Shown here in pieces: positions 6,846-38,414 of a DNA stretch of 64,000 bases (position 1 is the stretch's first letter; each line of letters begins with the position of its first letter). A model generated the notes under the pieces. It was not told the DNA's origin. It saw nothing but the letters and a program-made list of their open reading frames with translations, and made no database searches. The DNA lies in NCBI GenBank assembly GCA_026387175.1, contig JAPLME010000007.1:487-64486 (forward strand), given 5' to 3'. The DNA is from Candidatus Omnitrophota bacterium (GTDB lineage: Bacteria; Omnitrophota; Gorgyraeia; 2-01-FULL-45-10). The position numbers were made by a program, and so were the translations under genes.

Positions 6846-7565
6846 ATGCGCCGGAATTTAATTATTTTATCAGCTGTCTTAGTCGCGTTAATCCTTGGGC
6901 TTATATTAACGCTTCGATCCATACCCTGGTGGAAAGCAGGAGTAGCCAAGGGGAAGGCCGTGACGCTCGTAAAACTCTTTTCGTTCTCCAGCGATGATGC
7001 CTTGAAAGAATGGGAAGATAAGATTTTTAAGGGCAAGGTCGTATATAAGATCGAAAAGGATAAAGACCTTTCGTATGTGCAGGCGCATAGCACGGGAAGC
7101 GCCTCCGCCCTGTATTATAAGATAAAGTTAGACGCGAAGAACAGGCAGCCTGTCCTAAGATGGAAGTGGCATGCCGAAAGGTTTCCTGTGAAGAGCGCCC
7201 CGGAAAGCCTGGAGGCCCCGGGCGAGGATGATTTTGCCGGAAGAGTGTATGTTATCTTTCCGGCCATGTTTATCCTGAACTCAAATGTGATCGAGTATAT
7301 ATGGGCCGAAAAACTGCCCGTCGGCACTACAGGGACAAGCCCCTATTCGAAGAATATAAAACTTATGGTCCTGGAGAGCGGGCCCGCTAAAGACGGCAAA
7401 TTTGTTTCGGAGGAGAGGGATGTGGTCGCGGATTATCTTAAAGTTTTTGGAAAACCGCCCGAACATAATATAGGCGCAGTGGCGTTCATGACTAACGCCG
7501 AGCACACTAATACGAGCGCGGACGCGATGTATGATGAGATAGAGCTCGGATATAAGGAGAAATAG
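6846..7565 (+). CDS. Hypothetical protein with an N-terminal membrane anchor
   Basis: ATG at 6846 followed by one TM helix (LIILSAVLVALILGLILTL). No motif I recognise with confidence. Confidence 0.4.
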   Translation: MRRNLIILSAVLVALILGLILTLRSIPWWKAGVAKGKAVTLVKLFSFSSDDALKEWEDKIFKGKVVYKIEKDKDLSYVQAHSTGSASALYYKIKLDAKNRQPVLRWKWHAERFPVKSAPESLEAPGEDDFAGRVYVIFPAMFILNSNVIEYIWAEKLPVGTTGTSPYSKNIKLMVLESGPAKDGKFVSEERDVVADYLKVFGKPPEHNIGAVAFMTNAEHTNTSADAMYDEIELGYKEK

Positions 7566-16401: not shown

Positions 16402-17625
16402 ATGGGGAAGATAGAGCGAAATTTTTTATGGCTGACAGCTGCCAATATTGCAGGCAGCTTTTTTACTGTCATACTATTCATCTATCTGGCCAGGATCCTT
16501 GAAGCAGCGAACTTCGGATATCTTTCGTATGCCAGCGCTTTAGTATTTTACCTTTTTAATTTCATAGATTTGGGGCTTTCGACATACGGCATAAGAGAGA
16601 TCGCTAAGGATAAATCCGCGGTGTCCGAATATGTGTCAAATATAGTCTCTTTTAAGTTAATACTTGCGGTCATCCTCTTCATAGGCTTTGCCCTGATAAG
16701 CTTTTTAACGCATCAGTTTGCGCTTACGAGGATCCTTATGCTGGAGTTATCACTGATGTTTTTTGTATCAGCCTTAGCCTCCGAATGGGCGTTCCAGGGA
16801 CTTGAAAAGATGCATATGGTCTTTGTGTCGCTTGGGGTTACGTCTTTTCTTCAGCTCTTACTGAACATTCTTCTGGTAAAGCACCCCGGCGATGTCTTAA
16901 AGGTACCGCTTATTAACTTCTTAGCGTCAATGCCTGTAATAGTATTCTTTTTGCACCGGCTAAGGTTCAGGTTCCGTTTATTTTCACTTGATTTAAAAAA
17001 GATCCGGCTCTACCTGTCGAGCGCCATCGTAATATGGTCGATATCGATCTTCGCTCAAGTCTATAACGGCCTGGACATAGTGATACTTGGTTTCTTCAGG
17101 CCGCCCCAGGAAGTCGGTTATTTCAGCGTCGCAAGGCGCATCGTAGGCGGCGTAACGCTCTTGCTGACGTTTCTGGCCAGCGCTGTGCTGCCGCACCTGT
17201 CATGTACGTTTAAAGACGATATGCCCGGTTTCCGGCAGGGTACACGTAAATTTTTAAAAATGTCAGGCATAATATTGGTACTCGTATTCGTGCCTGTAAT
17301 GTTATTCAGCGGCCGGATCATATCACTTACCGTCGGGAGCGAGTATCTGCCCGCCAGCGTCCCGTTGAAGATAATGATAATGGCGATCATTCTGGTGACA
17401 TTCAATCTGCCGTATTCAACAGGCCTGATAGCGGCGTGCATGGAAAGAGAGGTGCTGAAGCAGGCCTCGGCCAGCGCGGCCTTGAGCGTATTTTTAAATT
17501 TCCTACTTATACCGAGATATGGTATGATAGGCGCATCCGTATCATTCTTATTTGCTGAGCTATTGGCGCTTGTTTGGATCCTTTGGGTTTATAATAACAA
17601 GATCCGCGCTCGTAGAAAGGCATAA
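16402..17625 (+). CDS. Polysaccharide biosynthesis protein / oligosaccharide flippase (Wzx-like, MOP superfamily)
   Basis: About 12 predicted TM helices. N-terminal signature ..NFLWLTAANIAGSFFTVILFIYLARIL..FGYLSYA typical of Wzx/RfbX flippases. Confidence 0.7.
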   Translation: MGKIERNFLWLTAANIAGSFFTVILFIYLARILEAANFGYLSYASALVFYLFNFIDLGLSTYGIREIAKDKSAVSEYVSNIVSFKLILAVILFIGFALISFLTHQFALTRILMLELSLMFFVSALASEWAFQGLEKMHMVFVSLGVTSFLQLLLNILLVKHPGDVLKVPLINFLASMPVIVFFLHRLRFRFRLFSLDLKKIRLYLSSAIVIWSISIFAQVYNGLDIVILGFFRPPQEVGYFSVARRIVGGVTLLLTFLASAVLPHLSCTFKDDMPGFRQGTRKFLKMSGIILVLVFVPVMLFSGRIISLTVGSEYLPASVPLKIMIMAIILVTFNLPYSTGLIAACMEREVLKQASASAALSVFLNFLLIPRYGMIGASVSFLFAELLALVWILWVYNNKIRARRKA

Positions 17626-18433: not shown

Positions 18434-21391
18434 ATGAACGCCCTGGCGATAACCAAAAAGACCTTATCAGTCCTTCTCATCTGCACTTTTATCACGAGCC
18501 AGGCGGCCTATCCCGTAACAGAAAACACCCAAACTAAAACTACCTACGAACAGAGTGTGCCCGGATCTTCCGTAGAAAAGACAATAAGCGCCGCCGCCGC
18601 TCTTACCTCTATGATAGAGGCCAAGAATGCCCTGATCTCCGCGCCTGTCGTTAGCAACCCCGCGGCACAGCAGATCATCATACACAGTGTATTCGAATTA
18701 CAGAACATCTCACAAAACCTCACCGCACATTATGCTCTCGCCAATGACATCGACGCCTCTATTACTAAAACATGGAACGGCGGATTAGGGTTTAATCCTA
18801 TTGATGGCTTTGCCGGTATATTCGATGGCCAGGGATACACGATCTCCAGCCTATATATAAATAGAGATACGCTAAATTTACTTGGGAGAAGGGATAACAT
18901 AGGACTTTTTGGTAAAACTGCTATTAATGCATGGGAAACCAGAATTATAAACACACATCTCGAGTCTGTTTTCATAACTGCTAATAGCTCTGCCGGAGGG
19001 TTGGTGGGCTTTTTCGCTAGTGGTGTAATCGAAAACTGCTCGGTAACGGGAACGATAAATATGGTGAATAGTAGTAGCGTTGGCGGCGGCCTTGTGGGCT
19101 GGAATGAGGGAGAGATATATAACTCCTCGGCGGAGGTAGCCGTGACCAGCTATAGCGAAGGCGGCGGCCTTGTCGGACAAAATAACGGATTAATTTACGG
19201 CTCTTACGCCGCAGGCATACTCGACGGCGCTTTATATACCGGCGGTCTCGCAGGCCGGAACGATGGGCGGATATATTACTCCACGGCTACGGGATCTGTG
19301 AATTGCTATCAATATGGCGGTGGCCTTGTAGGCTGGAACGAGGGGGAGATATACAGCTCCACGGCAGCGGGAGCCGTGAATGGCTATTATGGCATGGGCG
19401 GCCTCGTAGGCCGGAACAAGGGAGATATATATTACTCCATGGCTACGGGAGATGTAAACAAGAACTATTACGGTTCTTTCGATGCCGGCGGTCTTGTAGG
19501 CTGGAACGATGGAGAGATATACAGCTCCACGGCTGCTGGAACCGTTCGTGGTCGTTACAGCCCCGGTGGCTTCGTAGGGTCTAACAACGGGCAGATATAC
19601 TATTCCGCGGCAACGGGAACTGTGGAAGGATATGAGGGTGCTGGCGGTTTCGCGGGATTAAACGGTAATATCGGTACGATCTCAGGCTGTTACGCCACAG
19701 GTATCGTCACCAGTACTTCTGGTACCGATTACAGTACCAAGCGCACTGGTGGCTTTGTTGGTATGAACTATCGTTCCGGCATAACCGGTATAACCAATTC
19801 ATATGCGTCTAAGTTATATAACGTCCTCGACCTACAGCTTATTAAGTACAGGCCGACCGGTACATTTACAGTAATGCAGGACATCGATGCCATCGATACA
19901 AAAAACTGGAACGGGGGGCAGGGGTTCGAGTCGATCGCGAACTTCAATGGGATTTTCGACGGTAAGAACAAGGTCATCTCCAACCTCTATATAAACAGGC
20001 CCACCGAGAATAGTATAGGGCTTTTCGGATGGAATATGGGCACCATCATAAATACAGCCCTCAGCTGGGCAAATGTAAATGGTAGTTGCTACATTGGGGC
20101 GCTTGTAGGCATGAATTATGGCCAGATATCTAACTCTTGGGCAAACGGCGTGATAAAAGGAGCCTATTACCTTGGCGGCCTCGTTGGCATGAATTATGGC
20201 CAAATATGTAACTCCTGGACAAGCGGAACAATAAACGGCTATTACGGCGTAGGCGGCCTCGTCGGATACAATTACGGACTAATCCGGAGTTCTAATGCAT
20301 CGACCACTGTAAATGGCACTTACTATGTAGGCGGCCTCGCCGGCATGAACTATGCCCAGATATATAGCTCCACAGCAATAGGGATAATAAGCGGCTATTA
20401 CGGTATCGGCGGCCTCGCCGGATATAACTATGGTTTGATCTGGGGTTCTACCGCGTCGCCCACTGTAAATGGCACTTACTATGTCGGCGGCCTCGCCGGC
20501 ATGAGCTACGGCCAAATATATAACTCCACGGCGGTAGCGACGGTGAACGGCTATTACGGCGTCGGCGGCCTCGCAGGATATAATTATGGCTTAATCTGGG
20601 GTTCTTACGCCGCATGTGCTGTAAAAGGTACTTACTATGTCGGCGGCCTCGCCGGCATGAACTACAGCCAGATATATAATTCAACGACATGGGGAGTAAT
20701 AAACGGTTATTCCGGCATCGGTGGACTTGTCGGATATAACTACGGATTGATATATGGTTCCAGCGCATACGCCAATGTCACAGGCACCTGCTATGTCGGC
20801 GGCCTCGCCGGCATGAATTATGGCCAGATATATAACTCCTGGGCCAGTGGAATAGTAAATGGCTGGAACTACATCGGCGGGCTTGTCGGGGTAAATAGCG
20901 GCACTATCTCGGGATCCTCGGCACGGGGAGCCGTAACAGGCTATTACGGTACAGGCGGGCTTTGTGGATTGAATTACAGTGTTATCTCATCCTGTTATGC
21001 CACAGGCGCTGTCGCAGGCACTTACTATGCCGGCGGCCTTACCGGCATGAACTATGGCCAGATATCTTACTCTACCGCATATGGAGCCGTGAACGGCTTT
21101 TACGGTATCGGCGGCCTGGTCGGATATAACGCCGGCGTGATCTTAAACTCTTACGCCGTAGGCGCAGTTTCAGGAACTTACGATGTCGGCGGTCTTGTCG
21201 GTTTGAATATGTATACCGGCAAGATATATAATTCCGCGGCAACAGGAGGAGTAAATGGCTATGCCTATGTCGGCGGCCTCGTAGGCGCCAACTATGGCTT
21301 AATATCGAAGTGCTGGGCTATTGGACGTGTATTTGGTTCATACTATGTTGGTCAGTTAGTCGGTTATAACGCAGGGACCATAATATATTGA
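18434..21391 (+). CDS. Giant secreted GLUG-motif beta-solenoid repeat protein, first gene of the pair (985 aa)
   Basis: Signal peptide (..FITSQA/AYP). A ~110-aa N-terminal module (ANDIDASITKTWNGGLGFNPIDGFAGIFDG.GYTIS.LYINR) that recurs internally. More than 25 tandem ~26-aa repeats YVGGL(V/A)G.NYG.I.NS.A.G.V.G, which I read as the GLUG motif (PF07581-like). A conserved C-terminal tail. Confidence 0.75.
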   Translation: MNALAITKKTLSVLLICTFITSQAAYPVTENTQTKTTYEQSVPGSSVEKTISAAAALTSMIEAKNALISAPVVSNPAAQQIIIHSVFELQNISQNLTAHYALANDIDASITKTWNGGLGFNPIDGFAGIFDGQGYTISSLYINRDTLNLLGRRDNIGLFGKTAINAWETRIINTHLESVFITANSSAGGLVGFFASGVIENCSVTGTINMVNSSSVGGGLVGWNEGEIYNSSAEVAVTSYSEGGGLVGQNNGLIYGSYAAGILDGALYTGGLAGRNDGRIYYSTATGSVNCYQYGGGLVGWNEGEIYSSTAAGAVNGYYGMGGLVGRNKGDIYYSMATGDVNKNYYGSFDAGGLVGWNDGEIYSSTAAGTVRGRYSPGGFVGSNNGQIYYSAATGTVEGYEGAGGFAGLNGNIGTISGCYATGIVTSTSGTDYSTKRTGGFVGMNYRSGITGITNSYASKLYNVLDLQLIKYRPTGTFTVMQDIDAIDTKNWNGGQGFESIANFNGIFDGKNKVISNLYINRPTENSIGLFGWNMGTIINTALSWANVNGSCYIGALVGMNYGQISNSWANGVIKGAYYLGGLVGMNYGQICNSWTSGTINGYYGVGGLVGYNYGLIRSSNASTTVNGTYYVGGLAGMNYAQIYSSTAIGIISGYYGIGGLAGYNYGLIWGSTASPTVNGTYYVGGLAGMSYGQIYNSTAVATVNGYYGVGGLAGYNYGLIWGSYAACAVKGTYYVGGLAGMNYSQIYNSTTWGVINGYSGIGGLVGYNYGLIYGSSAYANVTGTCYVGGLAGMNYGQIYNSWASGIVNGWNYIGGLVGVNSGTISGSSARGAVTGYYGTGGLCGLNYSVISSCYATGAVAGTYYAGGLTGMNYGQISYSTAYGAVNGFYGIGGLVGYNAGVILNSYAVGAVSGTYDVGGLVGLNMYTGKIYNSAATGGVNGYAYVGGLVGANYGLISKCWAIGRVFGSYYVGQLVGYNAGTIIY

Positions 21392-21442: not shown

Positions 21443-24400
21443 ATGAACACCCTGGCCGTAATGAAGAAAACAGTATCGGTATTTCTCATATGCACTTTTA
21501 TCACGAGCCAGGCGGCCTACCCTGTATTAGAAAACACCCAAACTAACACATCCTACGAACAGAGTGTGCCCGGAACCTCCGTAGAAAAGACATTAAGCAC
21601 TACAGCTGCTCTTACCTCTATGATAGATGCCAAGAACGCTCTCCTGGGGCCGACGCCTGTGGCCAGTAACCCTGCTGCGCAATAGGTTGCCAGTACTACC
21701 ACCGTTCAACCCACTATCGTTATACACAGCGTATTCGAACTGCAAAATATTTCACAGAACCTCACCGCGCATTATACCCTCGCCAATGACATTGATGCTT
21801 CTATCACTAACACATGGAATGGTGGTCTAGGATTCAACCCTATAGACAATTTTGCCGGTATCTTCGATGGCGGTGGATATACCATCTCCAACCTCTATAT
21901 AAATAGGCCCAACGAAGACTTTATAGGGTTATTCGGTAGTACGGTCATAAGTAAATGGGATACCAGGATAATGAATGTGCGGCTCGAATCGGTTTCTATA
22001 ACCGGATTAAATGCTGTAAGCGGTCTTTGCGGATATAATGCAGGGACAATCTTAGCTTCTTATGTCACTGGGTCTGTTATTGGCTATACCGCTGCGGGGG
22101 GGCTGGTAGGAATAAATGATGGCAAAATAGATAATTGCCAAGTGACTGGAACAGTAAGTGGCCGTCCCGGTGAAACTTCTGGTATCGGCGGTCTTGTAGG
22201 TGAAAACTACGGCACGATCTCAAACTCACAAACGGGTGGGACTGTGGAAGGGACTTTAGGTAATAAAGCCCTTTGTGCTGGTGGCCTTGTCGGATTTAAT
22301 GAAGGTATAATTTCAACTTCTTATTCCACGAGTAATGTTGGCGGAAGTGACTTTCTCGGCGGATTCGTAGGTATAAATGGCGGTAAAATATATAATTCCT
22401 CTGCAATGGGAACAGTAATTGGCCCGCACTCTGAAGGTATAGGTGGATTTGCTGGTGGAAATTGGGGAGAGATCTTTAGTTCACGGGCAAGCGGAGCCGT
22501 GAACGGATATGGAGATGTCGGCGGCCTGTGCGGCGGAGTCGCGATAGGTGGGATGGTTTTCGATTCTTACGCTACAGGTATTGTTACAGGTGTTGAAGTT
22601 GTCGGTGGTCTCGCAGGCATAAGTTATGGAAATGTAACTAATTCCAGGGCAACTGGAACAATAAGCGGTAAGACATGTATTGGCGGTCTCATAGGTAGCA
22701 ATATTGGCTTGATATCGGAATCTTGGGCGAGTGGCGTTGTAAGTGGCGACTGGACGATTATCGGCGGCCTGTGCGGGTACAATGGTGATGGCGGTACAAT
22801 TAAAGCCTCTTATGCTAAAGGAAGCGTCACTTGTAATGACACTTATAACTATTATACCAGTAGCGATGATGTTGGCGGATTGGTGGGTGATAATTTTGGC
22901 ACAATTTCAGATTCTTGGGCAGCTGGTACGGTAAAAGGTGCTGAAGGTGTTGGCGGTCTATGCGGGTATACCGGTGGTATAATATCCGCCTCATATTCTT
23001 TAGGCAACGTTATCGGTAAATCTAAAGTCGGTGGGTTTTCCGGTGCTACCTCTGGGGACATATCTAACTCTTGGGCGACAGGAGCAGTGACTGGTGGCAA
23101 CAGTACCGGCGGGTTCTCGGGTTTAAATTTCGGTTCAGTATCCGATTCCTGGGCAAGCGGAGTTGTGAAGGGGTCTTCATATGTAGGTGGTTTTGTGGGT
23201 AGTAATGGTTATGAAGGCACGATCTCAAACTCCTGGGCAAGCGGAGCTGTGGATGGAGTTTCATATGTTGGCGGTTTATGTGGATACAATGTTTACGGCA
23301 TGATAGCGTCCTCTTACGCCTTAGGCAACATCACTGGAACCGACCACGTAGGCGGACTTGTAGGCATGAATATTAGCAAGATATATAACTCCTGGACAAG
23401 CGGAGCTGTGAATGGATCTTTATATGTTGGCGGCATAGCTGGATATAATATGAATTACGACATAGGTGGCATAATTTTATCGACTGGCATAATCTCAGGC
23501 TCTTGTGCCACAGGCGTTGTCACCGGCACCAACTTTGTCGGCGGCCTTGTCGGCAAAAACGATAAATCCGGCATAACCGGTATTACCAATTCCTATGCAT
23601 TGAACTTGTATAACGTCCTCGACCTCCAGCTTATGAAGTACAAGCTGGACGGCACATTTACGGTGATGGGTGACATCGACGCCTCCGACACCAAAAACTG
23701 GAATGGGGGAAAGGGGTTCGAGTCGATCGCAAACTTTGCGGGTATTTTCGACGGCAAGAACAAGGTCATCTCCAACCTCTATATAAATAGGCCTACTGAG
23801 ACCAATATAGGATTCTTCGGCAGTACAGCTATAGGTCCGTGGGAAGTCAAGATCATGAATACGCGGCTTGAGTCGGTTTCTGTGACTGGTAATGGTTCCG
23901 TTGGTGGTCTTGTTGGCTGTTTGTCAGCAAATGGCACAATAGAGCGCTCTTTGGTAACGGGAACTATAAACGGTCTCGGCTACTATATAGGCGGCCTTGT
24001 TGGTGGCAACTTTGAAGGAACCATTCGACAGTCATTTGCATCCGCGACAGTAACTGCCCCCGGCCTTGTTGGCGGTTTAGTTGGTATGAATACCGGAGAT
24101 ATTTATGATTCATATTCGACCTCCGATGTCAGCGGCAATTATTGGGCTGGCGGACTTGTCGGATTTAACAATGCCCAGTGGCAATATGCATATGGCCCAC
24201 ACGGTACGCGCATCCCTTATTTGGCATATGCCGGTAATGTTTACCGCAGCTATTCTACGGGCAGAGTTACTGGTTCTGACATTTATAATGGCGGGCTTAT
24301 AGGGTGCTCATGGGGTGGTACTATCTCCGACTCATACTGGAATATGAATACTTCCGGCATGAGTACAAGCGGTGGTGGCATGGGGAAGACCACAGCTCAG

Positions 24401-26866
24401 ATGATGGACGCCTCGACGTTTACGGGATGGGATATTTCATATAATTCCGGGCACACGTGGATCATGGCTGGGTATCCGCATCTGCAGTGGGAGTGGACCG
24501 ACAAGATAACCAACGCCTCCCAGCTCCAGATGGTGACGCTCAATACTAGCGCTAACTATACCATCGCTAATAACATCGATGCCTTCGCCACTAAAGGATG
24601 GAATGGCGGGTTGGGTTTTAACCCTATCGATGATTTTGCGGGCATTTTTGATGGCAAGAACAAGGTCATCTCCAACCTCTATATAAATAGGCCTAGTGAG
24701 TACTATGTAGGCCTTTTTGGCAGCATAGGTACAGGTTCGCAGGAAGCCAGGATTACGAATACAAGGCTCGAGTCGGTTTCTATAACCGGCGATAGTGATG
24801 TGGGCGGCCTCGTCGGTAGTCTATCAAATAAAGGCGTGATTGAGAATTGCTCCGTAACCGGAACGGTAAAAGGCTATAATTACACTATAGGTGGACTGGT
24901 CGGTTATAATGGTATTTACGGAACTATCCTGCAGTCATTCACGTCCGCGATAGTAAGCGCTGTTTATGGTTATGGCTACATAGTGGGCGGTCTTGTGGGC
25001 ATGAATGTCGGTAATATTTATAATTCATACTCGACATCCGCTGTAAACAATGGTTATAAATATACCGGCGGACTTGTAGGTTCCAATGCCGGTAATATTT
25101 ATAATTCCTGGGCAACAGGGACGGTAAGCAGCAATATCAGTAGTAATGTCACCGGCAATATCAGCAGTAGCGATGGTGCTGGTGGACTTGTGGGCGCGAA
25201 CTCCGGAGGAATATACGGTTCCTGGGCAAGCGGAGCAGTAATAGGAGGCGCATATGGATCTTCGCATCTCGGCGGCCTGATCTCGGCCTCGTATGCGATA
25301 GGTAGTATTATAGGGCGTAACGCTTTCCGTATCGGCGGCCTTGTAGGAGAGAACCAGGGCAAAATATATAATTCCTGGGCAAGCGGAGCTGTGAACAGTG
25401 TATATAGCTATGCCGGAGGTCTCGTCGGATACAATGCAGCTAATGGTTTGATATCGGCTTCTTATGCCATAGGTAATGTCACGGCCAGCTCATCTATCGG
25501 CGGCCTCGCAGGTTTTAACGACAACGGCACTATCTCGGACTCATGGGCAAGCGGAACTATCGCTGGAGCTAGCAATATAGGCGGCCTAGTAGGAGATAAT
25601 ACAGGAACGATTTCTAACTCTTATGCTAAAGGGAGCCTTAAGAATGGCTGTGTTGCCGGCGGACTTGTCGGTGAAAACAAGGGCTCCGGCAAAATATATA
25701 ACTCTTGGGCCACCGGAGCTGTGGATGGGAGCTCATGTGCCGGCGGCCTTGTGGGGCTTAACAACATCGGAGCCATGATTTCGAACTCATGGGCAAGCGG
25801 CGCCATAAAGGGATATGCGTATTATTCTTCAGGCCTCGGCGGCCTGGTCGGGACCAACGCCGGTATAATTTCGGCCTCGTATGCTACAGGTAGTGTTATC
25901 GGTGCGCTCAATGCAGTTCGTCTCGGCGGCCTTGTAGGAAATAACTGCGGCAAAATATATAGCTCATGGGCGAGAGGAGCCATAACCGGCGCATATACCT
26001 ATGCCGGTGGATTAGTCGGATATAACGAAGTTAATAGTTTGATTTCATACTGTTATGCGCTAGGCGCTGTTACCGGCACCTACTTTGCCGGCGGACTTGT
26101 AGGCCAGAACCGCGGCACGATCTTGAGTTCCCGGGCAAACGGCGTTGTAAATGGACAATCACTTGCCGGCGGCCTCGTTGGAGATAATTATGGCGTAATT
26201 TCCGCCTCTTATGCCACAGGCAGTGTCACCAGTACTGGTGCCGACATCGGCGGACTTGTAGGCCAGAACCGCGGCACGATCTTGAGTTCCTGGGCAAGCG
26301 GAGCCGTGAAGGGGAGATCTGAAGTCGGCGGCCTCGTCGGATGGAATGACGGACTGATCTCGGCCTCGTATGCTTTGGGCAATGTTATTGGCTCTGCTAT
26401 TCTTGGCGGCCTTGTAGGCGACAATTATTATTCCGGCACGATCTCGAATTCATGGGCCGGGGGAGCCGTAACCGGGGATACAAATGTTCTATCTTTTCAA
26501 TCCTTTGCCGGCGGATTGGTGGGAAATAATCATGGCTTGATCTCAACCTCCTGCGCCACCGGTAATGTTACCACAGCCTCTTCCTGGATCGGCGGGCTTG
26601 TGGGTATAAATTACGGCAAAATATATAATTCCTGGGCGTCGGGAATAGTAAAAGGATATGATTTCGTTGGCGGGCTCACAGGTTTTAATAATAACACGAT
26701 CTCTAATTCCTGGGCGAGGGGAACTGTAAGCGGGCATTACTACGTCGGCGGCCTGGTGGGCGCCAACTACGGCCTGATATACAAGTGCCGGGCATTTGGC
26801 CGCGTATTCGGTTCACGTTATGTAGGTTGGCTAGTCGGTTATAACGCTGGGACCATAATATACTAG
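21443..26866 (+). pseudogene. Second giant GLUG-repeat protein, interrupted by one in-frame TAG at 21683-21685. As a single frame it would encode about 1807 aa.
   Basis: ORFs 21443..21685 and 21971..26866 share a frame, and I translated 21686..21970 with no further stop. The N-terminal 80 codons are highly similar to the 18434 paralog, including its signal peptide. The ORF-track alternative is a 1631-aa product from the internal ATG at 21971, which would lack a signal peptide. Confidence 0.6.
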
Positions 26867-26914
26867 AGGCAGTAACCGCATTTGCCGGGCCTCCACTCCC
26901 GGCAGATGTATTAT

Positions 26915-26960
26915 CCCCATGTCGATTGACGCTGTCGGCATGGGGATTTTTTTGTTTTTG
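26915..26960 (+). terminator. Rho-independent terminator after the giant gene pair
   Basis: Stem ccccatg/catgggg followed by TTTTTTTGTTTTTGTTTT. A second short hairpin gccggg/cccggc lies just upstream (26884-26903). Confidence 0.7.
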
Positions 26961-26967
26961 TTTTAAT

Positions 26968-26996
26968 TTGACTATCAACTTCTCCTGTGGTATATA
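26968..26996 (+). promoter_or_regulatory. Sigma-70-like promoter: TTGACT, 17-nt spacer, extended -10 TGgTATATA
   Basis: Read directly. Lies about 60 nt upstream of the DUF134 gene. Confidence 0.5.
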
Positions 26997-27055
26997 TGGG
27001 TATACACTCATAAAATAAGCTGTGGATAGATTTTGTAAAATGGGGGTTTAATTTT

Positions 27056-27385
27056 ATGCCGATGGGAAAGGATAGCGAAAAACCGGTAAAAAAAGGCCGG
27101 CCTATCAAGGCCAGGATAGTGCATAGGGAGCCGGGGACAAAACAATTTAGCCCTCGCGGCAGGCGAGGGAGGCCGGGCTATAACGCTCTGAAGCACGAGG
27201 AGTTGGAGGCTATAAGATTGGCCGATTTTACAGGCTTGAAACAGGCCGAGGCTGCCGAGCAGATGAACATAAGCCAGCAGACGTTTTCCAGGGTCTTGAG
27301 ATCCGGCCGGAAATGCCTGGCGGAGGCCATTGTATTGGGCCATATAATAAAGGTCGATGGGGGAGACTTCAAGCTTGAAAAATAA
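27056..27385 (+). CDS. DUF134 / UPF0251-family predicted DNA-binding protein
   Basis: Basic N-terminus, then ..ALKHEELEAIRLADFTGLKQAEAAEQMNISQQTFSRVL.. This matches the sigma-70 region-4-like HTH signature of COG1342/DUF134. Confidence 0.65.
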   Translation: MPMGKDSEKPVKKGRPIKARIVHREPGTKQFSPRGRRGRPGYNALKHEELEAIRLADFTGLKQAEAAEQMNISQQTFSRVLRSGRKCLAEAIVLGHIIKVDGGDFKLEK

Positions 27386-27451
27386 GCTAAAATCCATATA
27401 ACGTCCTAAGTTAACATTGATGTTTAGTGCGATTTGTGATATGGTTATGGT

Positions 27452-28315
27452 ATGGCTAAAGGGTTAAGAACAAGATTGAACCAGGAAGAGTTGCGCAGGC
27501 TATATCTTGTAGAGAAAAAATCTCTCGAGGATATCGCGCGGCTACATGGTGCATCCAGGGTTGCCGTGTGGAAGTATTGTAATGCCGAGGGCTTGACGAG
27601 GCGCACCAGGTCGGCCGCCAGATTGGAAGCCCAGAAAAAAGGAAAAGTTCCCCAGGGCTTCTTCGAAATAAATGATAATTTTTTCAGTAATTGGTCTCCG
27701 GAAATGGCGTATGTTTTGGGATTAATCGCCACCGATGGTTGCGTTTCTAAATCCGGTACCGTGTCGCTCTGTATAAACGATAAAGATCTATTAGAAAAAG
27801 TAAGACTGGTTATGGATTCCGAGCATAAGATATGCCGGTCAAAGTATCAAGAAGGGTTATATTCTTTTCATTTTGCAAGGCCCCGGTTAGTTAAGGACTT
27901 GGCAGCGCTTGGTATTCTGCCCAGGAAGAGCCTGAATATTAAGTTTCCGGCAGTTCCGGATGCTTTTTTGATTGATTTTGTCAGAGGAGTTTTTGATGGT
28001 GACGGCTCCGTGTATTTTGAAAAACGAAGCGAACGCTATCCTTTAAGAACGACATTTGTCAGCAGCTCGCAAGAGTTCATTGAAAAACTGGAGATCGTTC
28101 TGCGGCAAATGGGGTTACCTGAACGTGTAATACACAGGCAAACTACGAAAAACGGATTACATTTTAAGATCAGATATAGTCATAAAGATAGCGCGAAACT
28201 GTTTCATTTGATGTACAATGACACTGCCAATTCCTTGTTTTTGGGGCGTAAATATAATAAATTTTTGGATGGTTTTCAGAAAGAAAATAGCGGAGCTGAA
28301 TATAATGGAAAATGA
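27452..28315 (+). CDS. Free-standing LAGLIDADG-family endonuclease-like protein (two LAGLIDADG motifs) with an N-terminal HTH extension
   Basis: The N-terminal ~65 aa form an HTH (SLEDIARLHGASRVAVWKYC). Motif 1 is YVLGLIATDGCVS and motif 2 is FVRGVFDGDGSVY, both keeping the acidic residue. The ~110-aa spacing is typical of single-chain LAGLIDADG enzymes. Confidence 0.65.
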   Translation: MAKGLRTRLNQEELRRLYLVEKKSLEDIARLHGASRVAVWKYCNAEGLTRRTRSAARLEAQKKGKVPQGFFEINDNFFSNWSPEMAYVLGLIATDGCVSKSGTVSLCINDKDLLEKVRLVMDSEHKICRSKYQEGLYSFHFARPRLVKDLAALGILPRKSLNIKFPAVPDAFLIDFVRGVFDGDGSVYFEKRSERYPLRTTFVSSSQEFIEKLEIVLRQMGLPERVIHRQTTKNGLHFKIRYSHKDSAKLFHLMYNDTANSLFLGRKYNKFLDGFQKENSGAEYNGK

Positions 28316-28517
28316 GCTAGAGGCATGGCGCAAAGCGCATAAATTTTACTCATGTAGCGCCTATTTGACGAAAGATTTAGCAGCATATCTAAAAGTCTCA
28401 CCCAGGACGGTTCAGAGGTGGCTAAAAGGAAAGACGCATCCCAAAGAAACGCAATTAGGCCTTATCAAAAAATATCTATCCGAAAACTCCAAAAATACCA
28501 CCAAAAGCGAAATATAG
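28305..28517 (+). CDS. Small HTH DNA-binding protein
   Basis: ATG at 28305 overlaps the upstream stop (ATGGAAAATGA), implying translational coupling. HTH segment TKDLAAYLKVSPRTVQRWLKGK. Confidence 0.5.
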   Translation: MENELEAWRKAHKFYSCSAYLTKDLAAYLKVSPRTVQRWLKGKTHPKETQLGLIKKYLSENSKNTTKSEI

Positions 28518-28746
28518 AGTTAAATATTAATCCGCTGACCCAATAGAAGGCGCCTAAGGACAGTTGTTTGTTTCCCTTCATATATGTCGCACTGCGCCCG
28601 ATAATATATCTTATGTTAACTTGCCAAGCACAAAGTAATTGATATAAGATATTGATGTACAATGTCTTCTGTGTTTATGCGGTTTTCCTGTTGATAAGTG
28701 TATCTCTGCGGGAATCCATTCAACTAACTGCAGTATTGACTTGCGG

Positions 28747-29097
28747 CTAAGTCTTTTCAACTTCTATTGAATCGACCAGGAATTCTTTATTATATATGAT
28801 ATCCAGGTCTGAATCATTGCATTTAACGCATCTGGTGGTCGGTTTATCTACTGAAAAAGTATGTTTGCAAGAACGGCATTTTATTTCGAGCTGCAACACC
28901 TTGATATTAAGAGCTGTATTCTCGAATTTCGTGCCTTTTGTCATGGCCTTGAAGGTCTCGGTAAGGGTTTCGGGTTTGACATGGCTTAAAGGGCTTAATG
29001 CGGCATTTACAGTGATGATTTTAGAGCCTTTTGGTATAGTATTCAGCTTATCATTAAGAGCATTCAATATCTCTTTAGTAAACATCAAATCATGCAT
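28747..29097 (-). CDS. hypA: Hydrogenase nickel-insertion / maturation factor HypA-like zinc-ribbon protein
   Basis: MHD.. N-terminus (HypA starts MHE). About 115 aa. C-terminal CxxC-x13-CxxC (CRSC...CVKC). Confidence 0.5.
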   Translation of the reverse strand: MHDLMFTKEILNALNDKLNTIPKGSKIITVNAALSPLSHVKPETLTETFKAMTKGTKFENTALNIKVLQLEIKCRSCKHTFSVDKPTTRCVKCNDSDLDIIYNKEFLVDSIEVEKT

Positions 29098-29108
29098 TTA
29101 TAGGCTTT

Positions 29109-29501
29109 CTATAGCTGTATTTTTGACCGGATCTCTTCAGGTATTCTGGTCGGCTTCAAATTACCATTTACGCAGGCCCAAACTGCCTTGCAGATAAGTA
29201 AAGTGGTCTCTCCCCTTTTGATCTCCTGTATAAAATTAAGAGAGGCATTTCCTACTTTTTCAGGTCTGGTAAATATACGGATTATATCACCGTATCTGGC
29301 GGGACATTTATAGTCTATTTCCAGGTGTACTACGGGAAATATTATGCCGTTTTTCGCGTATTCTACAAGGTCTACGCCGATATTGCAAAAGTACTCTGTG
29401 CGGGCTTCCTCAAGATGCTTTAGATAGGCGCCGTAATACACAACGCCTCCCGCATCCGTATCATGATAGTACATCTTTTTTTGCAGGTAGAAATCTTTCA
29501 T
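29109..29501 (-). CDS. Acyl-CoA thioesterase, hotdog fold (YbgC/4HBT family)
   Basis: N-terminal YHDTDAGGVVYYGAYLKHLEEARTEYF, the 4HBT signature with a catalytic Asp. Confidence 0.65.
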   Translation of the reverse strand: MKDFYLQKKMYYHDTDAGGVVYYGAYLKHLEEARTEYFCNIGVDLVEYAKNGIIFPVVHLEIDYKCPARYGDIIRIFTRPEKVGNASLNFIQEIKRGETTLLICKAVWACVNGNLKPTRIPEEIRSKIQL

Positions 29502-33899: not shown

Positions 33900-34770
33900 T
33901 CCCCTGGCAGCTTTCTCTCTTCATTAAGGTCTCTTTTATCTTTTGGATCGTCCCCGGCTTGTCGAGCGCCCAGAGCGGGGCAATATGGTCTGGCCTCTTC
34001 CCCTGGCCCGTAAGGCGATGTATTATGATGCCATCAGAAAGGTTCTCTAGGAAATCGCAGACAAGCTCTACATATTCTTCCTGGGCCAGGACTCTTATAT
34101 CGCCATTTTTATAGAGTTTTTCGAATTCGCTTCCCTTAAGAATGTGCAAGAGATGTATCTTCACGCCATCGACCTTCAGCTCGGTGAGCTTCCGTGCGGT
34201 CCCGACGATCTCCTCTTTTGTCTCGCCGGGAAGGCCGATTATTACATGTACGCATACAGGTATCGATAATTTTTTCGTATCGTCGTAGGCCCTTAAAAAG
34301 TCACTAAAGTTATGGCCGCGGTCTATGGTTTTAAGGGTTCGGTCGTGTATCGATTGAAGTCCATACTCCAGCCAGACCTCGTATCTGTCTTTGTACGAAG
34401 ATATCAATTTTAACTTATCAGCGTCTACGCAGTCGGGACGCGTCCCTATAGATAAGCCTATTATCTCTTCAAAAGGCAATATCTGGTCATAGATCTCTTT
34501 TAACCGGTTTACGGGAGAGTTGGTGTTAGTGAAGGCCTGGAAGTATGCGACGAATTTTGACGCATCCCCGGACTTCTTCAAATATTCTATCCGGCCTGAA
34601 AGTTGTTCCGTAATGGATTTTTTCGGGTCCGCGTAAGATGAGCGTGAGCCGTCTTCGTTGCAATAGAGGCAGCGATGAGGACATGAAAATCCGGCATCGA
34701 GCCCGATGCGATAGACCTTAGTGCCGTATCTTTCCTTCAGGTATGAGCCGTAGTCGTTGTAAAGTTTCAT
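33877..34770 (-). CDS. TIGR01212-family radical SAM protein (YhcC-like)
   Basis: CPHRCLYC radical SAM cluster motif near the N-terminus. Size and motifs match TIGR01212. The 3' end overlaps glgC convergently by 23 bp. Confidence 0.7.
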
Positions 34771-36560
34771 TTTGACCTTCTCGCGCTGTCCAGGTATATC
34801 ATAAGGATGGATATGGCGGCGGGCGTAACGCCGGATATGCGCGATGCCTGGCCAAGGTTTATCGGCCTGGCCCTTGAGAGTTTCTCTTTTATTTCCGAGG
34901 AGAGGCAGTTTATTTTTTTGTAATCCAGGCCCTCCGGGATCTTTATCCTTTCTATCTTGCCGAGCCGGCCGACCTCTTTAAGCTGTCTTTTTATAAATCC
35001 CTCATATTTTATCTCTATCTCCACGACTTTTGCTTCCTCCTCCGAGATATTTATCCTGTCTTCCGCCGGCACGACTTCTTCATATGACGCGCCGGGCCGC
35101 CGTAATTTTTTTTCAAGGCGCGTCATTTTAAGCCTGTTTATTTCGGAGCCGATCCTGGCATTTTTAGCTACAGCTTTTTTATACGTTGCCTCGTTAACCA
35201 GGCCGATATTATATCCGATAGGAGTAAGCCGTAAGTCGGTATTGTCTTCCCGCAGGATGAGACGGTATTCAACCCGTGAAGTGAACATTCTGTACGGCTC
35301 GTTAGTTCCCTTTGTTACCAGGTCATCTATCAGGACCCCGATATATGCCTGTGACCGCTCCAGGACCAGCGGTTTTTTGCCTTGAGTTTTCAGGGCGGCG
35401 TTTATTCCGGCCATGAGGCCGAGCGCCGCGGCCTCTTCGTATCCGGTGGTGCCGTTTATCTGGCCGGCGAGATACAGGCCGGAGACAGCTTTCGTCTCAA
35501 GCGTCGGATAAAGTTCGGTAGGATCGACATAATCATATTCGATTCCATAGCCGGGCCTGACTATATTTGCTTTCTCAAGGCCCTCAATGGATCTCACCAT
35601 CTTTTCCTGCACATCCAAAGGCAGGCTCGTCGATATGCCGTTGGGATAACACTGTGTTGTGCCGAGGCCTTCCGGCTCGATAAATACATGGTGCCGGTCG
35701 CGTCCGGGAAATCTATGGATCTTATCCTCTATCGATGGGCAGTATCGGACGCCCGTACCCTTTATCACTCCTGTAAAGAGCGGTGACCGATTGAGGTTTG
35801 ACAATATTATGTCGTGGGTATTTTTGTTTGTGTATGTTATATAACAGGGAAGCTGCTCTCTCGCTATTTTTTTAGTCTGGAATGAGAACGGCGTTATCCG
35901 CTCATCGCCGTATTGAACGGCCATCTTTTTAAAATTTATTGTCCTGCCGTCCAATCTTGCGCAGGTGCCGGTCTTGAGACGGCCCGTTCTAAAGCCGAGG
36001 CTTTTTATAGCGCTCGATAATCCTTTGGAGTTATCTTCCCCTATCCTCCCGCCGGCCCAATTTTTAAGCCCTATATGGATCAAGCCATTAAGGAATGTGC
36101 CGGGCGTGATTATTACGCATTTTGCGTGGAATATTTCACCTGATGCCGTTTTCACTCCCTCTATGCGGCCATTTTTAACTATAAGGTCTTCAACCATCCC
36201 CTCCCGCACCTGAAGTCCGGCCTGGCCCAGGATAGCTGTCTTCATGTATATCCGGTAAGCTTCGATGTCTACCTGGGCCCTGGTCGATCTCACGGCGGGG
36301 CCCTTTTTAGTGTTCAAGATACGGAATTGCACAGCGCTTGCGTCGGTAGCTTTCGCCATTTCGCCGCCCAGGGCATCGATCTCCTTTACAAGCTGGCCCT
36401 TCGCGAGGCCTCCTACGGCGGGGTTGCATGACATCAGGCCTATCGTGTCGATGCTCATAGTTATGAGCAGAGTCTTCCGGCCGAGCCGACTCCCCGCAAG
36501 CGCTGCCTCACAGCCGGCATGTCCTGAGCCTATTACTAATATGTCGAATTTACTGGCCAT
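34767..36560 (-). CDS. mnmG: tRNA uridine-5-carboxymethylaminomethyl modification enzyme MnmG (GidA)
   Basis: FAD-binding [17 protein letters not shown]-terminus. GGLAKGQ and [10 protein letters not shown] motifs. 597 aa. Confidence 0.9.
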
Positions 36561-37193: not shown

Positions 37194-38414
37194 TTAAAGG
37201 CTTATTATCGAGTCGAACGTGCCGAAAGAGTTCTGTTCGCGCTCCTTATTCTGAGAATCCGATATCCATTCGCCGTCGATAATGAATTTGTATTTATGCC
37301 TGCCTGCGGTTAATCCCAGCTTCTTTTCCCATCTGCCGTTATCAAGCCTCGAGAGACGGCAGTCTTCGGTGATCTTCCAGTTATTGAAATCACCGACAAC
37401 GTATATCTCCTTTGCGCTCGGCGCGTCTACGTTAAAGAGTATATCCCTCGGAGAGGTCGTCGACTCTTCAATATTATTGGTAACTCCTCTGGGCAAGTTC
37501 ATGACCGGCGCGGCGCTTTCGCGCGCGACGTCACTTACCGTTTCTTCTATTCTTGAGCCGGATGATGGCAGGACGGCTTCGGCACTCCGGGCGGTCTCTG
37601 TAGCCGCCGTCGGCGATACGGCGTTCAACGCCTTTTCGAATTCAAGGGCTCCATCCGCCCTAAGCATCTCCTGAGCCAAGGCCATATAATCCTTCGCGCC
37701 GATAGAGTCCTTATTGAACCGGGTAATACATACCCCTTTGGCGGCGGCTTTTTTCAGGTCTACATTCATTCTTATCACGGTCGATAGTAACTGGTCCTTA
37801 AAGAACGCTTTTATCTCGTTATACATGACCTCAGAGTATTTTGTCCTCCTGTCATAGAGAGTGGCGAGCGCGTTTACCTGAGGCGAATGGAATATCTTTA
37901 TCTTTATCAGTTCCAGCATACCAAGAAGCTTTCCGACGCCCATCAAAGAGAGCGCGCTCATGTCTATCGGAACTATTACCTGGTCGCAAGCGCGTAATGC
38001 GTTAAATGTCAAGAACCCCAGGCTCGGCGGGCAGTCTATGACCATATAATCGTAGTCCAGATGGCTCATCGTCAGCGCCTGGTGCAATTTTGATACCGCG
38101 TCTTCCTTGTCCTTTAATTCCTGTTCAAGGGTGCTTAATAGTATATTCGCGGGCACTATATCCAGATTAGGAGAAACGTTGACTATGCAATCTTTTATGG
38201 GGCGGTTCTTTTCCGGATTATCCGTCAGGACGTTGTAGACAGAGCGGTCCATGCTCTGATTCGTCCGGTTGAGGCTGAAGCTCGCATGAGCCTGAGGGTC
38301 GAGATCCACCACCAGGGTCTTTTTACCCGTCTCCGCAAGTGCGCCTGCGAGATTTATGGCCGTCGTGGTCTTACCGCAACCGCCCTTTTGATTGGCTATT
38401 GCTATTTTCTTCAT
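37194..38414 (-). CDS. ParA/MinD-family ATPase fused to a C-terminal CBM48 / AMPK-beta-type glycogen-binding domain
   Basis: Deviant Walker A KGGCGKTT near the N-terminus, then a ParA-like fold to about aa 250. A Ser/Ala/Thr-rich linker follows. C-terminal IYVVGDFNNWK..HKYKFIIDGEWISD..NSFGTFDSIISL. Confidence 0.75.
   Translation of the reverse strand: MKKIAIANQKGGCGKTTTAINLAGALAETGKKTLVVDLDPQAHASFSLNRTNQSMDRSVYNVLTDNPEKNRPIKDCIVNVSPNLDIVPANILLSTLEQELKDKEDAVSKLHQALTMSHLDYDYMVIDCPPSLGFLTFNALRACDQVIVPIDMSALSLMGVGKLLGMLELIKIKIFHSPQVNALATLYDRRTKYSEVMYNEIKAFFKDQLLSTVIRMNVDLKKAAAKGVCITRFNKDSIGAKDYMALAQEMLRADGALEFEKALNAVSPTAATETARSAEAVLPSSGSRIEETVSDVARESAAPVMNLPRGVTNNIEESTTSPRDILFNVDAPSAKEIYVVGDFNNWKITEDCRLSRLDNGRWEKKLGLTAGRHKYKFIIDGEWISDSQNKEREQNSFGTFDSIISL

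Follow-up and report, generated by a model that had tools for sequence, protein, structure and literature searches.

What is a free-standing gene for a LAGLIDADG protein doing between two genes for small helix-turn-helix (HTH) proteins in a bacterial chromosome? The question is raised by a stretch of 64,000 nucleotides (contig JAPLME010000007.1 of assembly GCA_026387175.1, positions 487 to 64,486, forward strand; hereafter the window), which the names attached to homologues assign to an Omnitrophota metagenome-assembled genome (MAG). Three open reading frames (ORFs) are present at the locus: ORF1, a DUF134 protein; ORF2, in which an HTH is combined with two LAGLIDADG motifs; and ORF3, a 70-aa HTH protein. 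An initial annotation, made from the letters of the window, had described them as one cassette and had left three readings of ORF2 side by side, namely a domesticated regulator, a selfish homing element, or a nuclease aimed at the neighboring giant repeat genes. What it missed was the dif site, and with it the replication terminus, directly downstream; this context is decisive. The trio is not a chance array, since ORF2 has 1182 homologues (E ≤ 1e-3) and the same three genes are found again in more than 20 genomes. Our favored reading, to which we would give an even chance, is that of an optional, probably selfish homing-endonuclease module, made up of ORF2 and ORF3, that was inserted on the XerC side of dif, next to a resident DUF134 gene. 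Coordinates of all features are collected in Table 1; related loci are referred to by L numbers.

The locus ends at dif and the replication terminus

When motifs were counted in the sequences flanking related loci, an almost invariant element emerged 50–100 nt after ORF3; in the window it lies 76 nt 3' of ORF3 and is single-copy. The element has the anatomy of a dif site, with 28 bp divided into an 11-bp XerC arm ending in ATAA, a 6-bp center and an 11-bp XerD arm of the form TTATGTnAAnT, and the 28-mer matches published sites from Ralstonia (...CATAATTTATCTTATGTTAAAT), Anaeromyxobacter (ACGTCCGATAAT...GGTAACT) and Desulfovibrio (PMC2731167). GC skew is positive in all 14 2-kb bins up to 28 kb and approximately zero or negative beyond, and genes lie on the plus strand up to position 28517 and almost all on the minus strand beyond 28747. 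Related loci behave alike: among those with at least 3 kb on each side of dif, three rows being left out as slicing artefacts, GC skew was higher upstream than downstream of dif in 25 of 25 other loci, and genes converge on dif. Because the dif anatomy coincides with a switch in skew and a switch in gene orientation, the site is, as judged from these sequence features, the chromosomal dif at the replication terminus, and recombination by XerC/XerD is predicted to occur there.

Two further observations concern this region. The AT skew, like the GC skew, changes sign near 28–30 kb, where genes converge. The dif center plus XerD arm, ATATCTTATGTTAA (28606–28619), is followed 19 nt downstream by an 86% complementary inverted copy, TTGATATAAGATAT (28639–28652); related strings of the form GATATAAG occur in some relatives.

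The position beside dif is not peculiar to the window. All Omnitrophota ORF2 loci with enough downstream sequence, including the complete chromosome L032, have dif 50–250 nt past the cassette. In CP070837.1 (1.553 Mb), dif is located near 894.6 kb. Homologues from Bacteroidota (34–37% identity) have a perfect dif 110–700 nt downstream in the same orientation at 5 of 5 loci, again with genes converging at dif and with neither DUF134 nor ORF3. Shuffled loci yielded 0.175 dif matches per locus; measured against these, the 5/5 Bacteroidota loci together with all Omnitrophota loci place the linkage of ORF2 to dif far beyond chance. L038, the locus of a Bacteroidales MAG, has an additional dif-like site at 6996–7023 of that locus, inverted and 20 nt before the true dif at 7043–7070, with a perfect XerD arm (ATTTAACATAA) and with the XerC sides of both sites facing one another; its LAGLIDADG protein also has an N-terminal CxxC...CxxC zinc ribbon.

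ORF2 and ORF3 are an optional insert at a fixed site

What lies upstream of dif varies strongly between loci. In a census of metagenomes scanned with one exact 19-nt dif core, which renders the proportions rough, the matches listed included 54 non-redundant loci whose sequence extends 1.5 kb or more upstream of dif; all three genes are missing from 27 of these, 22 carry DUF134 alone, 40–220 nt before dif, one carries DUF134 plus ORF3, and four carry ORF2 with or without ORF3. In the DUF134 tree, insert-bearing and insert-free loci are intermixed, and there are pairs of loci with 82–86% identical DUF134 and matching flanks whose sole difference is an insert of 1.1–1.2 kb comprising ORF2 and ORF3. 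Decayed copies of ORF2 were found as well: L094 retains a C-terminal remnant only, L031 is frameshifted, L029 is shortened, and an identical frameshift is found in L104 and L137, which come from two independent assemblies. ORF2 thus occurs sporadically at one site in the form of intact, decayed and empty alleles, which is the pattern of a mobile gene.

The single three-gene cassette of the initial annotation was consequently half right, as ORF2 and ORF3 are linked but DUF134 is not part of the unit, being resident at dif also where ORF2 and ORF3 are missing. Of the three readings offered for ORF2, the selfish homing element fits best, given its presence or absence at a fixed site, its decayed copies and its homing-endonuclease fold; the invariance of the catalytic aspartates and the distant relatives among phage intron endonucleases (see below) fit this reading too.

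L104 (651–1930) and L137 (971–2250) also differ in gene order, with ORF3 followed by the frameshifted ORF2, a different HTH gene and a dif without the ATGTCGCACT box described below; the arrangement is either a pseudogene or a rearranged array.

ORF2 has the features of a homing endonuclease

ORF2 matches the LAGLIDADG_3 profile (PF14528) in two stretches with E 1.8e-14. Its motif 1, YVLGLIATDG, contains D95 (codon 27734–27736) and its motif 2, FVRGVFDGDG, contains D182 and D184 (codon of D184, 28001–28003). In an alignment of 121 family members with 55–83% identity, D95 is conserved in 121/121 and D184 in 120/121 sequences. The earlier description of a 287-aa protein with two LAGLIDADG motifs and retained catalytic residues behind a sigma-70 region-4-like HTH is confirmed. 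An AlphaFold2 (AF2) model built from 120 sequences reached a predicted local distance difference test (pLDDT) score of 90 and a predicted template modeling (pTM) score of 0.76, superseding an earlier model from 21 sequences (pLDDT 69) that was unusable, and displays the repeated alpha-beta-beta-alpha-beta-beta-alpha fold of solved LAGLIDADG enzymes. In Foldseek searches the best match was I-Tsp061I (E 7e-12), followed by the intein endonucleases TliVMA and PI-PfuI and by I-OnuI and I-DmoI (~1e-6), with the intron-splicing LAGLIDADG protein bI3 maturase also among the top matches; I-Tsp061I is at the same time the closest solved structure by sequence (2DCH, E 6.6e-8). From sequence and model, ORF2 looks like a working homing endonuclease, its activity being predicted.

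The N-terminal HTH (approximately residues 11–45) is YlxM/UPF0122-like and of the sigma-70 region-4 type (PDB 1S7O/1XSV, E ~0.01 with a family profile). Relatives that include this HTH and share the architecture of ORF2 over its whole length (26–34% identity over residues 7–272) are phage intron endonucleases, found in a recA-like intron of the Staphylococcus phages Romulus and Remus, in a polymerase intron of Bacillus phage 0305phi8-36, and in Brevibacillus phage Jenst. Since these proteins align from residue 7–9 on, the extra HTH represents a pre-existing endonuclease architecture: the fusion to which the initial annotation drew attention is real, but it is not an oddity. The wider HTH(n)-LAGLIDADG superfamily comprises 6658 representatives at E ≤ 1e-10. 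The phage relatives sit in introns of replication or recombination genes, whereas the Omnitrophota family is chromosomal and intergenic. An intron or intein setting for ORF2 was rejected, as no Rfam intron family was found in 26000–29500 at E ≤ 1 and the flanking ORF1 and ORF3 are complete, separate genes; ORF2 is therefore free-standing, as originally stated. Likewise, no close relatives of ORF2 were found on viral contigs or plasmids, and a phage or plasmid origin of the close family was discarded because matches there are distant only (≤36% identity).

ORF2 has its own promoter-like site, which keeps its position and spacing throughout the clade and has a -35 element that reads TTGACA in relatives. 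No Shine–Dalgarno sequence precedes ORF2. With only 6 nt between the end of the -10 element and the ATG, the transcript probably lacks a leader. A public gene call, P0002, has 230 aa and is 100% identical over 80% of ORF2; apparently its start was placed at an internal TTG near residue 58, which drops the N-terminal HTH (window 27452–27622).

Three HTH proteins in an operon-like array with conserved operators might also be taken as three transcription regulators, with ORF2 as a WhiA-like, catalytically dead DNA binder whose position at dif is incidental. WhiA indeed shares with ORF2 the LAGLIDADG scaffold, the possession of an HTH and conservation in bacterial chromosomes, and ORF2 gives a weak match to the LAGLIDADG_WhiA profile (18.7 bits, below the cut-off of 23.2). 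However, WhiA has its HTH at the C-terminus and has lost the catalytic acidic residues, whereas in ORF2 the HTH is N-terminal and the catalytic Asp is invariant; in addition, the top 50 fold matches of ORF2 do not include WhiA, and the linkage to dif exceeds chance by far. We consider this explanation very improbable. A broader version, a domesticated WhiA-like regulator spread throughout the phylum, was suggested by the 55–83% identical homologues and the conserved trio; it was dropped, since the insert is optional and patchily distributed and the fold matches are true endonucleases.

ORF3 and a conserved box beside the XerC arm

ORF3 belongs to the HTH_3 family (E 5.6e-6) and, with its start codon 11 nt inside ORF2, is translationally coupled to ORF2 as far as the overlap indicates; the initial annotation had noticed the overlap but gave no start coordinate, which is 28305. 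It was found after ORF2 in about 25 loci with a family hidden Markov model; P0122 and L032 have an in-frame fusion of ORF2 and ORF3, and ORF3 occurs without ORF2 in L092, L099, L119 and L161. Directly abutting the XerC arm is the ATGTCGCACT box, conserved in 27 non-redundant loci with ORF3 and absent from 68 loci without it, so that the box is a candidate ORF3 binding site; together with the outer XerC arm it often forms a palindrome, GCAC-NN-GTGC. The outer XerC arm is relaxed at loci with ORF3 and box, whereas cassette-less loci keep the conserved ACTTCCTATAA arm (an example of a cassette-less dif region reads ...CAACTTCCTATAATATATCTTATGTTAACT...; an ACGTCC variant also exists).

We also considered ORF3 as a counterpart of XafT, the factor encoded by TLCphi. 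In XafT, the activity, i.e., activation of XerD, resides in the DUF3653 domain (PMC6744903). ORF3 is without DUF3653, and matches to VC1465_fam are confined to the HTH, do not exceed 20 bits against a cut-off of 70 and concern 4 of 17 members; the assignment was rejected, the similarity being at the HTH level and far under the cut-off.

The left edge of the insert

In the clade of the window, the sequence GTCCTAAGTTAACATTGACA-N17-TATnTT-N6-ATG is located exactly 49 nt before the start of ORF2. Among 247 loci (1.9 Mb) searched, it was found solely there, at 10 distinct ORF2 loci. The bases before it in L009 and L064, CCTATGCTCAACGTCCTA, agree at 17 of 18 positions with the flank plus XerC arm of the intact, cassette-less dif in L063 and L102; because of this match, the left edge can be understood as a dif site that lost its central 13 bp, and AACGTCCTAAGTTAAC in the window is likely such a dif remnant marking the left edge in this clade. 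The remnant overlaps the conserved ORF2 promoter. In the other, larger clade, ORF1 and ORF2 overlap and there is no left remnant. A search of the window for terminal repeats flanking the three genes returned chance-level pairs only.

A dif-derived sequence at either end calls to mind the IMEXs, integrative mobile elements that exploit Xer. CTXphi, TLCphi with its XafT, and the gonococcal genetic island (GGI) integrate at the chromosomal dif, and a degenerate second dif-like site, as present in the GGI, can stabilize the element (PMC6744903). By analogy, ORF2-ORF3 would enter and leave by means of the host XerCD, between dif and a dif-like site of the element, with ORF3 and its box acting as accessory or activation factor and the nuclease as cargo. 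The insert lies right against dif at its XerC side, the adjacent XerC arm departs from the ACTTCCTATAA sequence of cassette-less loci, the remnant at the left edge is in direct orientation in the window's clade, L104 and L137 contain ORF3-ORF2-HTH arrays, and no integrase is encoded in the cassette; like the IMEXs, the insert sits directly at dif and encodes a small HTH-containing factor beside the site. Against this stand the overlap of ORF1 and ORF2 in the larger clade, which leaves no left dif-like site in most loci, the missing DUF3653 in ORF3, the endonuclease cargo, the size of only ~1.2 kb without phage, plasmid, replication or transfer functions, and the lack of a close relative on viral contigs. 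We regard an IMEX-type element as rather unlikely.

DUF134 as a resident neighbor of dif

ORF1 is a bona fide DUF134/UPF0251 protein (PF02001, E 7e-22, 78.3 bits against a cut-off of 27, profile positions 3–97 of 98) that also matches Sigma70_r4 at threshold. Its near-consensus promoter, read from the letters (a scan rule demanding T at the last -10 position omits it), has a layout conserved in the relatives L003, L006, L008 and L013, in agreement with the strong promoter of its own that had been ascribed to it. Downstream of the -10 element, an imperfect palindrome was present upstream of DUF134 at 12 of 16 loci, compared with at most 6 in shuffles. The palindrome was rejected as a second dif or as a cassette-specific element; because cassette-less DUF134 loci have it too, it belongs to DUF134 and not to ORF2/ORF3. 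DUF134 adjoins dif on its XerC side at ~40% of the dif-core loci among the matches listed (L054–L128), with the LAGLIDADG insert or without it, and its promoter, palindrome and leader are conserved in both situations. DUF134 is a resident neighbor of dif and lies outside the variable insert.

On the other side of dif, 36 loci have the motif CTGTGGA(A/T)AA at a distance of 85–87 nt from the dif core, on the plus strand only (0/72 on the reverse strand), and one clade has GGTAAGTTTAAGTAAA in the DUF134 leader with a mirror counterpart, TTTACTTAAACTTACC, ~110 nt after dif. Since DUF134 adjoins dif, with flanking motifs at fixed spacing, this arrangement suggests that DUF134 is a DNA-binding protein of the terminus or of dif itself.

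How the module may be maintained at dif

According to the homing reading, ORF2 would cut dif regions that lack the cassette; a single-copy site with 28 highly constrained base pairs would make an ideal homing target. The module would then be copied in by repair, for which the DUF134 gene together with the dif-distal flank would supply the homology arms, or, as an alternative for the first insertion, may have entered by Xer-mediated recombination. The resident dif could escape cutting owing to its changed outer XerC arm in combination with ORF3 occupying the ATGTCGCACT box. Finally, the dif-like remnant over the ORF2 promoter may act as an uncleavable operator for autoregulation. I-TevI, which represses its own promoter via an uncleavable operator that resembles its homing site, is the model for this last step. 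Somewhat more generally, the HTH-LAGLIDADG protein and its HTH partner may act on dif, either because dif is the homing target or because they constitute a new accessory or alternative machinery for Xer recombination or terminus processing in which DUF134 organizes dif; we offer this idea tentatively and rate it clearly below an even chance.

A number of observations sit uneasily with a selfish homing module. Cleavage by ORF2 and dif as its target are both predictions. The proportions of the census, drawn with a single exact core from the matches listed, are rough. ORF1, ORF2 and ORF3 co-diverge within cassette-bearing lineages (Mantel p ~5e-4), a divergence comparison detected no recent horizontal transfer of ORF2, and ORF2 is conserved to about the same degree as flanking housekeeping genes (72.5% vs 70.6% for GidA in L003; 83% vs 71–85% in L006). 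Since the trio co-diverges and ORF2 is as conserved as its neighbors, the patchiness could reflect one old gain followed by repeated losses. Classical homing makes no target duplication, yet the insert has a dif remnant at one end and an intact dif at the other. L008, L017 and L049 have a nearly canonical dif despite carrying the cassette, which provides no evident immunity via an altered XerC arm. In the loci searched from Planctomycetota, Acidobacteriota, Firmicutes and Chloroflexota, moreover, no dif was found within ~1.2 kb of the genes for the more distant homologues.

Some of these points would be accommodated if ORF2, together with ORF3, had been co-opted to serve the cell at dif, be it by assisting Xer recombination as an accessory factor or by nicking or cutting DNA at a specific site during dimer resolution or termination. 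The strict linkage to dif in two phyla, the strong purifying selection across the whole of ORF2 with its invariant Asp, and its co-divergence with the neighboring genes are in line with such a role; in the ORF2-ORF3 fusions, the nuclease would be kept next to the XerC arm, which is relaxed in its outer part where ORF3 and the box are present. Precedent exists in the single-recombinase systems xerS/difSL and xerH/difH, in which the gene for the dif-acting protein lies directly beside dif (PMC2731167). Yet XerS and XerH are tyrosine recombinases, whereas the genes considered here encode HTH proteins and a LAGLIDADG nuclease, and the dif is of the classical two-arm form for XerC/XerD. Many close relatives do without the cassette, pseudogenized copies are known, and the nearest characterized relatives of ORF2 are mobile endonucleases. 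A co-opted function in the cell appears to us as improbable as the IMEX-type element, and the selfish homing module remains our preferred explanation.

Gene neighborhood and features of the locus

The left limit of the locus is the strong intrinsic terminator that closes the upstream giant GLUG-repeat gene. Two such genes (PF07581) occupy 18434–21391 and 21971–26866. At L006, the closest relative, whose ORF2 is 83% identical, the polysaccharide-synthesis gene corresponding to window 16402–17625 is followed by DUF134 after ~680 nt. Because L006 is devoid of them, the giant genes represent a lineage-specific insertion near the terminus. This comparison also disposes of the proposal that ORF2 is a nuclease or regulator dedicated to the repeat genes, for which adjacency in the window is the single argument: in L006 no giant genes separate ORF1 of the cassette from the same upstream gene, and no other locus has them, so that the link is excluded by synteny and has, in our view, next to no chance of being correct.

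Table 1. Features of the dif-proximal locus, in window coordinates.
Feature	Position	Strand	Details
Intrinsic terminator	26913–26947	+	14-bp stem followed by T-run; inverted repeat I3; closes upstream giant GLUG-repeat gene
ORF1 promoter-like site	26968–26996	+	-35 TTGACT (26968–26973), 17-nt spacer, extended -10 TGgTATATA (26988–26996)
Imperfect palindrome TATGGGTATACACTCATAA	26995–27013	+	just 3' of ORF1 -10; DUF134 leader/operator consensus TTATGAGTA-N-TACTCATAA
CTGTGGATAG motif, DnaA-box-like	27020–27029	+	in ORF1 leader; related copy 86 nt after dif
ORF1, DUF134/UPF0251 HTH protein, 109 aa	27056–27385	+	PF02001
Likely dif remnant AACGTCCTAAGTTAAC	27400–27415	+	outer XerC arm plus outer XerD arm, central 13 bp missing
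ORF2 internal promoter-like site	27417–27445	+	-35 TTGATG, 17-nt spacer, TGa TATGGT
ORF2, HTH plus monomeric double-LAGLIDADG protein, 287 aa	27452–28315	+	PF14528; stop codon 28313–28315
ORF3, HTH protein, 70 aa	28305–28517	+	HTH_3; start (ATG 28305) 11 nt inside ORF2
ATGTCGCACT box	28584–28593	+	abuts dif XerC arm; candidate ORF3 binding site
dif	28594–28621	+	GCGCCCGATAA / TATATC / TTATGTTAACT (XerC arm / central hexamer / XerD arm)
CTGTTGATAA	28688–28697	+	copy of CTGTGGA(A/T)AA motif; fixed distance 3' of dif

The GC content falls to 0.38–0.42 over 27800–29500, a region comprising the 3' half of ORF2, ORF3, hypA and a thioesterase gene. Several loci (L001, 5069–5760; L003, 4470–5158; L099; L055) carry toxin–antitoxin-like pairs and other small DNA-binding genes at the XerC side of dif, for example PIN_3 with a small partner, a HicB-like gene and a ribbon-helix-helix-like ORF, and the XerC-side interval looks like an insertion hot spot. 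In the window as well as in L003, gidA/mnmG (window 34767–36560) is found 6 kb from dif; gidA is usually regarded as origin-proximal. A gene encoding a ParA-like AAA_31 ATPase with a glycogen-binding CBM48 domain is located at 37194–38414 of the window, and a gene of this type lies 1.5–3 kb upstream of the cassette in L012, L015, L016, L018, L028, L029 and L046.

Relation to known systems and implications

Archaeal I-Tsp061I and I-DmoI are monomeric enzymes which, like ORF2, have two LAGLIDADG helices, each with an acidic residue; they are intron-encoded and lack an N-terminal HTH, whereas ORF2 is free-standing, with a YlxM-like HTH, and located at dif. In lifestyle, the closer parallels are I-TevI and the free-standing homing endonucleases of phage T4, which possess an HTH module, are free-standing or promoter-linked and home beside a conserved target, the host allele being protected by sequence differences. 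They differ from ORF2 in that their catalytic domains are of the GIY-YIG or HNH type, their hosts are phages, and their targets lie within genes and not in a cis-acting site of the chromosome.

The components of the locus (a LAGLIDADG endonuclease, dif, HTH proteins) are thus all of known kinds, and it is their conserved association in two phyla that appears to be new; in the full-text literature we found no paper tying LAGLIDADG enzymes or DUF134 to dif or Xer. Homing endonucleases target conserved genes such as those for rRNA, polymerases and recA. A dif-tied LAGLIDADG family in two phyla would unite homing endonucleases with the hijacking of dif in the manner of IMEXs. If dif is indeed the homing target, ORF2 would be the first known case of a homing endonuclease that exploits the chromosome-dimer resolution site, the family would provide natural meganucleases for a near-universal 28-bp bacterial site, and ORF2 genes would mark the terminus in uncultured genomes. 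DUF134/UPF0251, an old orphan family, gains a lead for its function, namely a possible role at the terminus.

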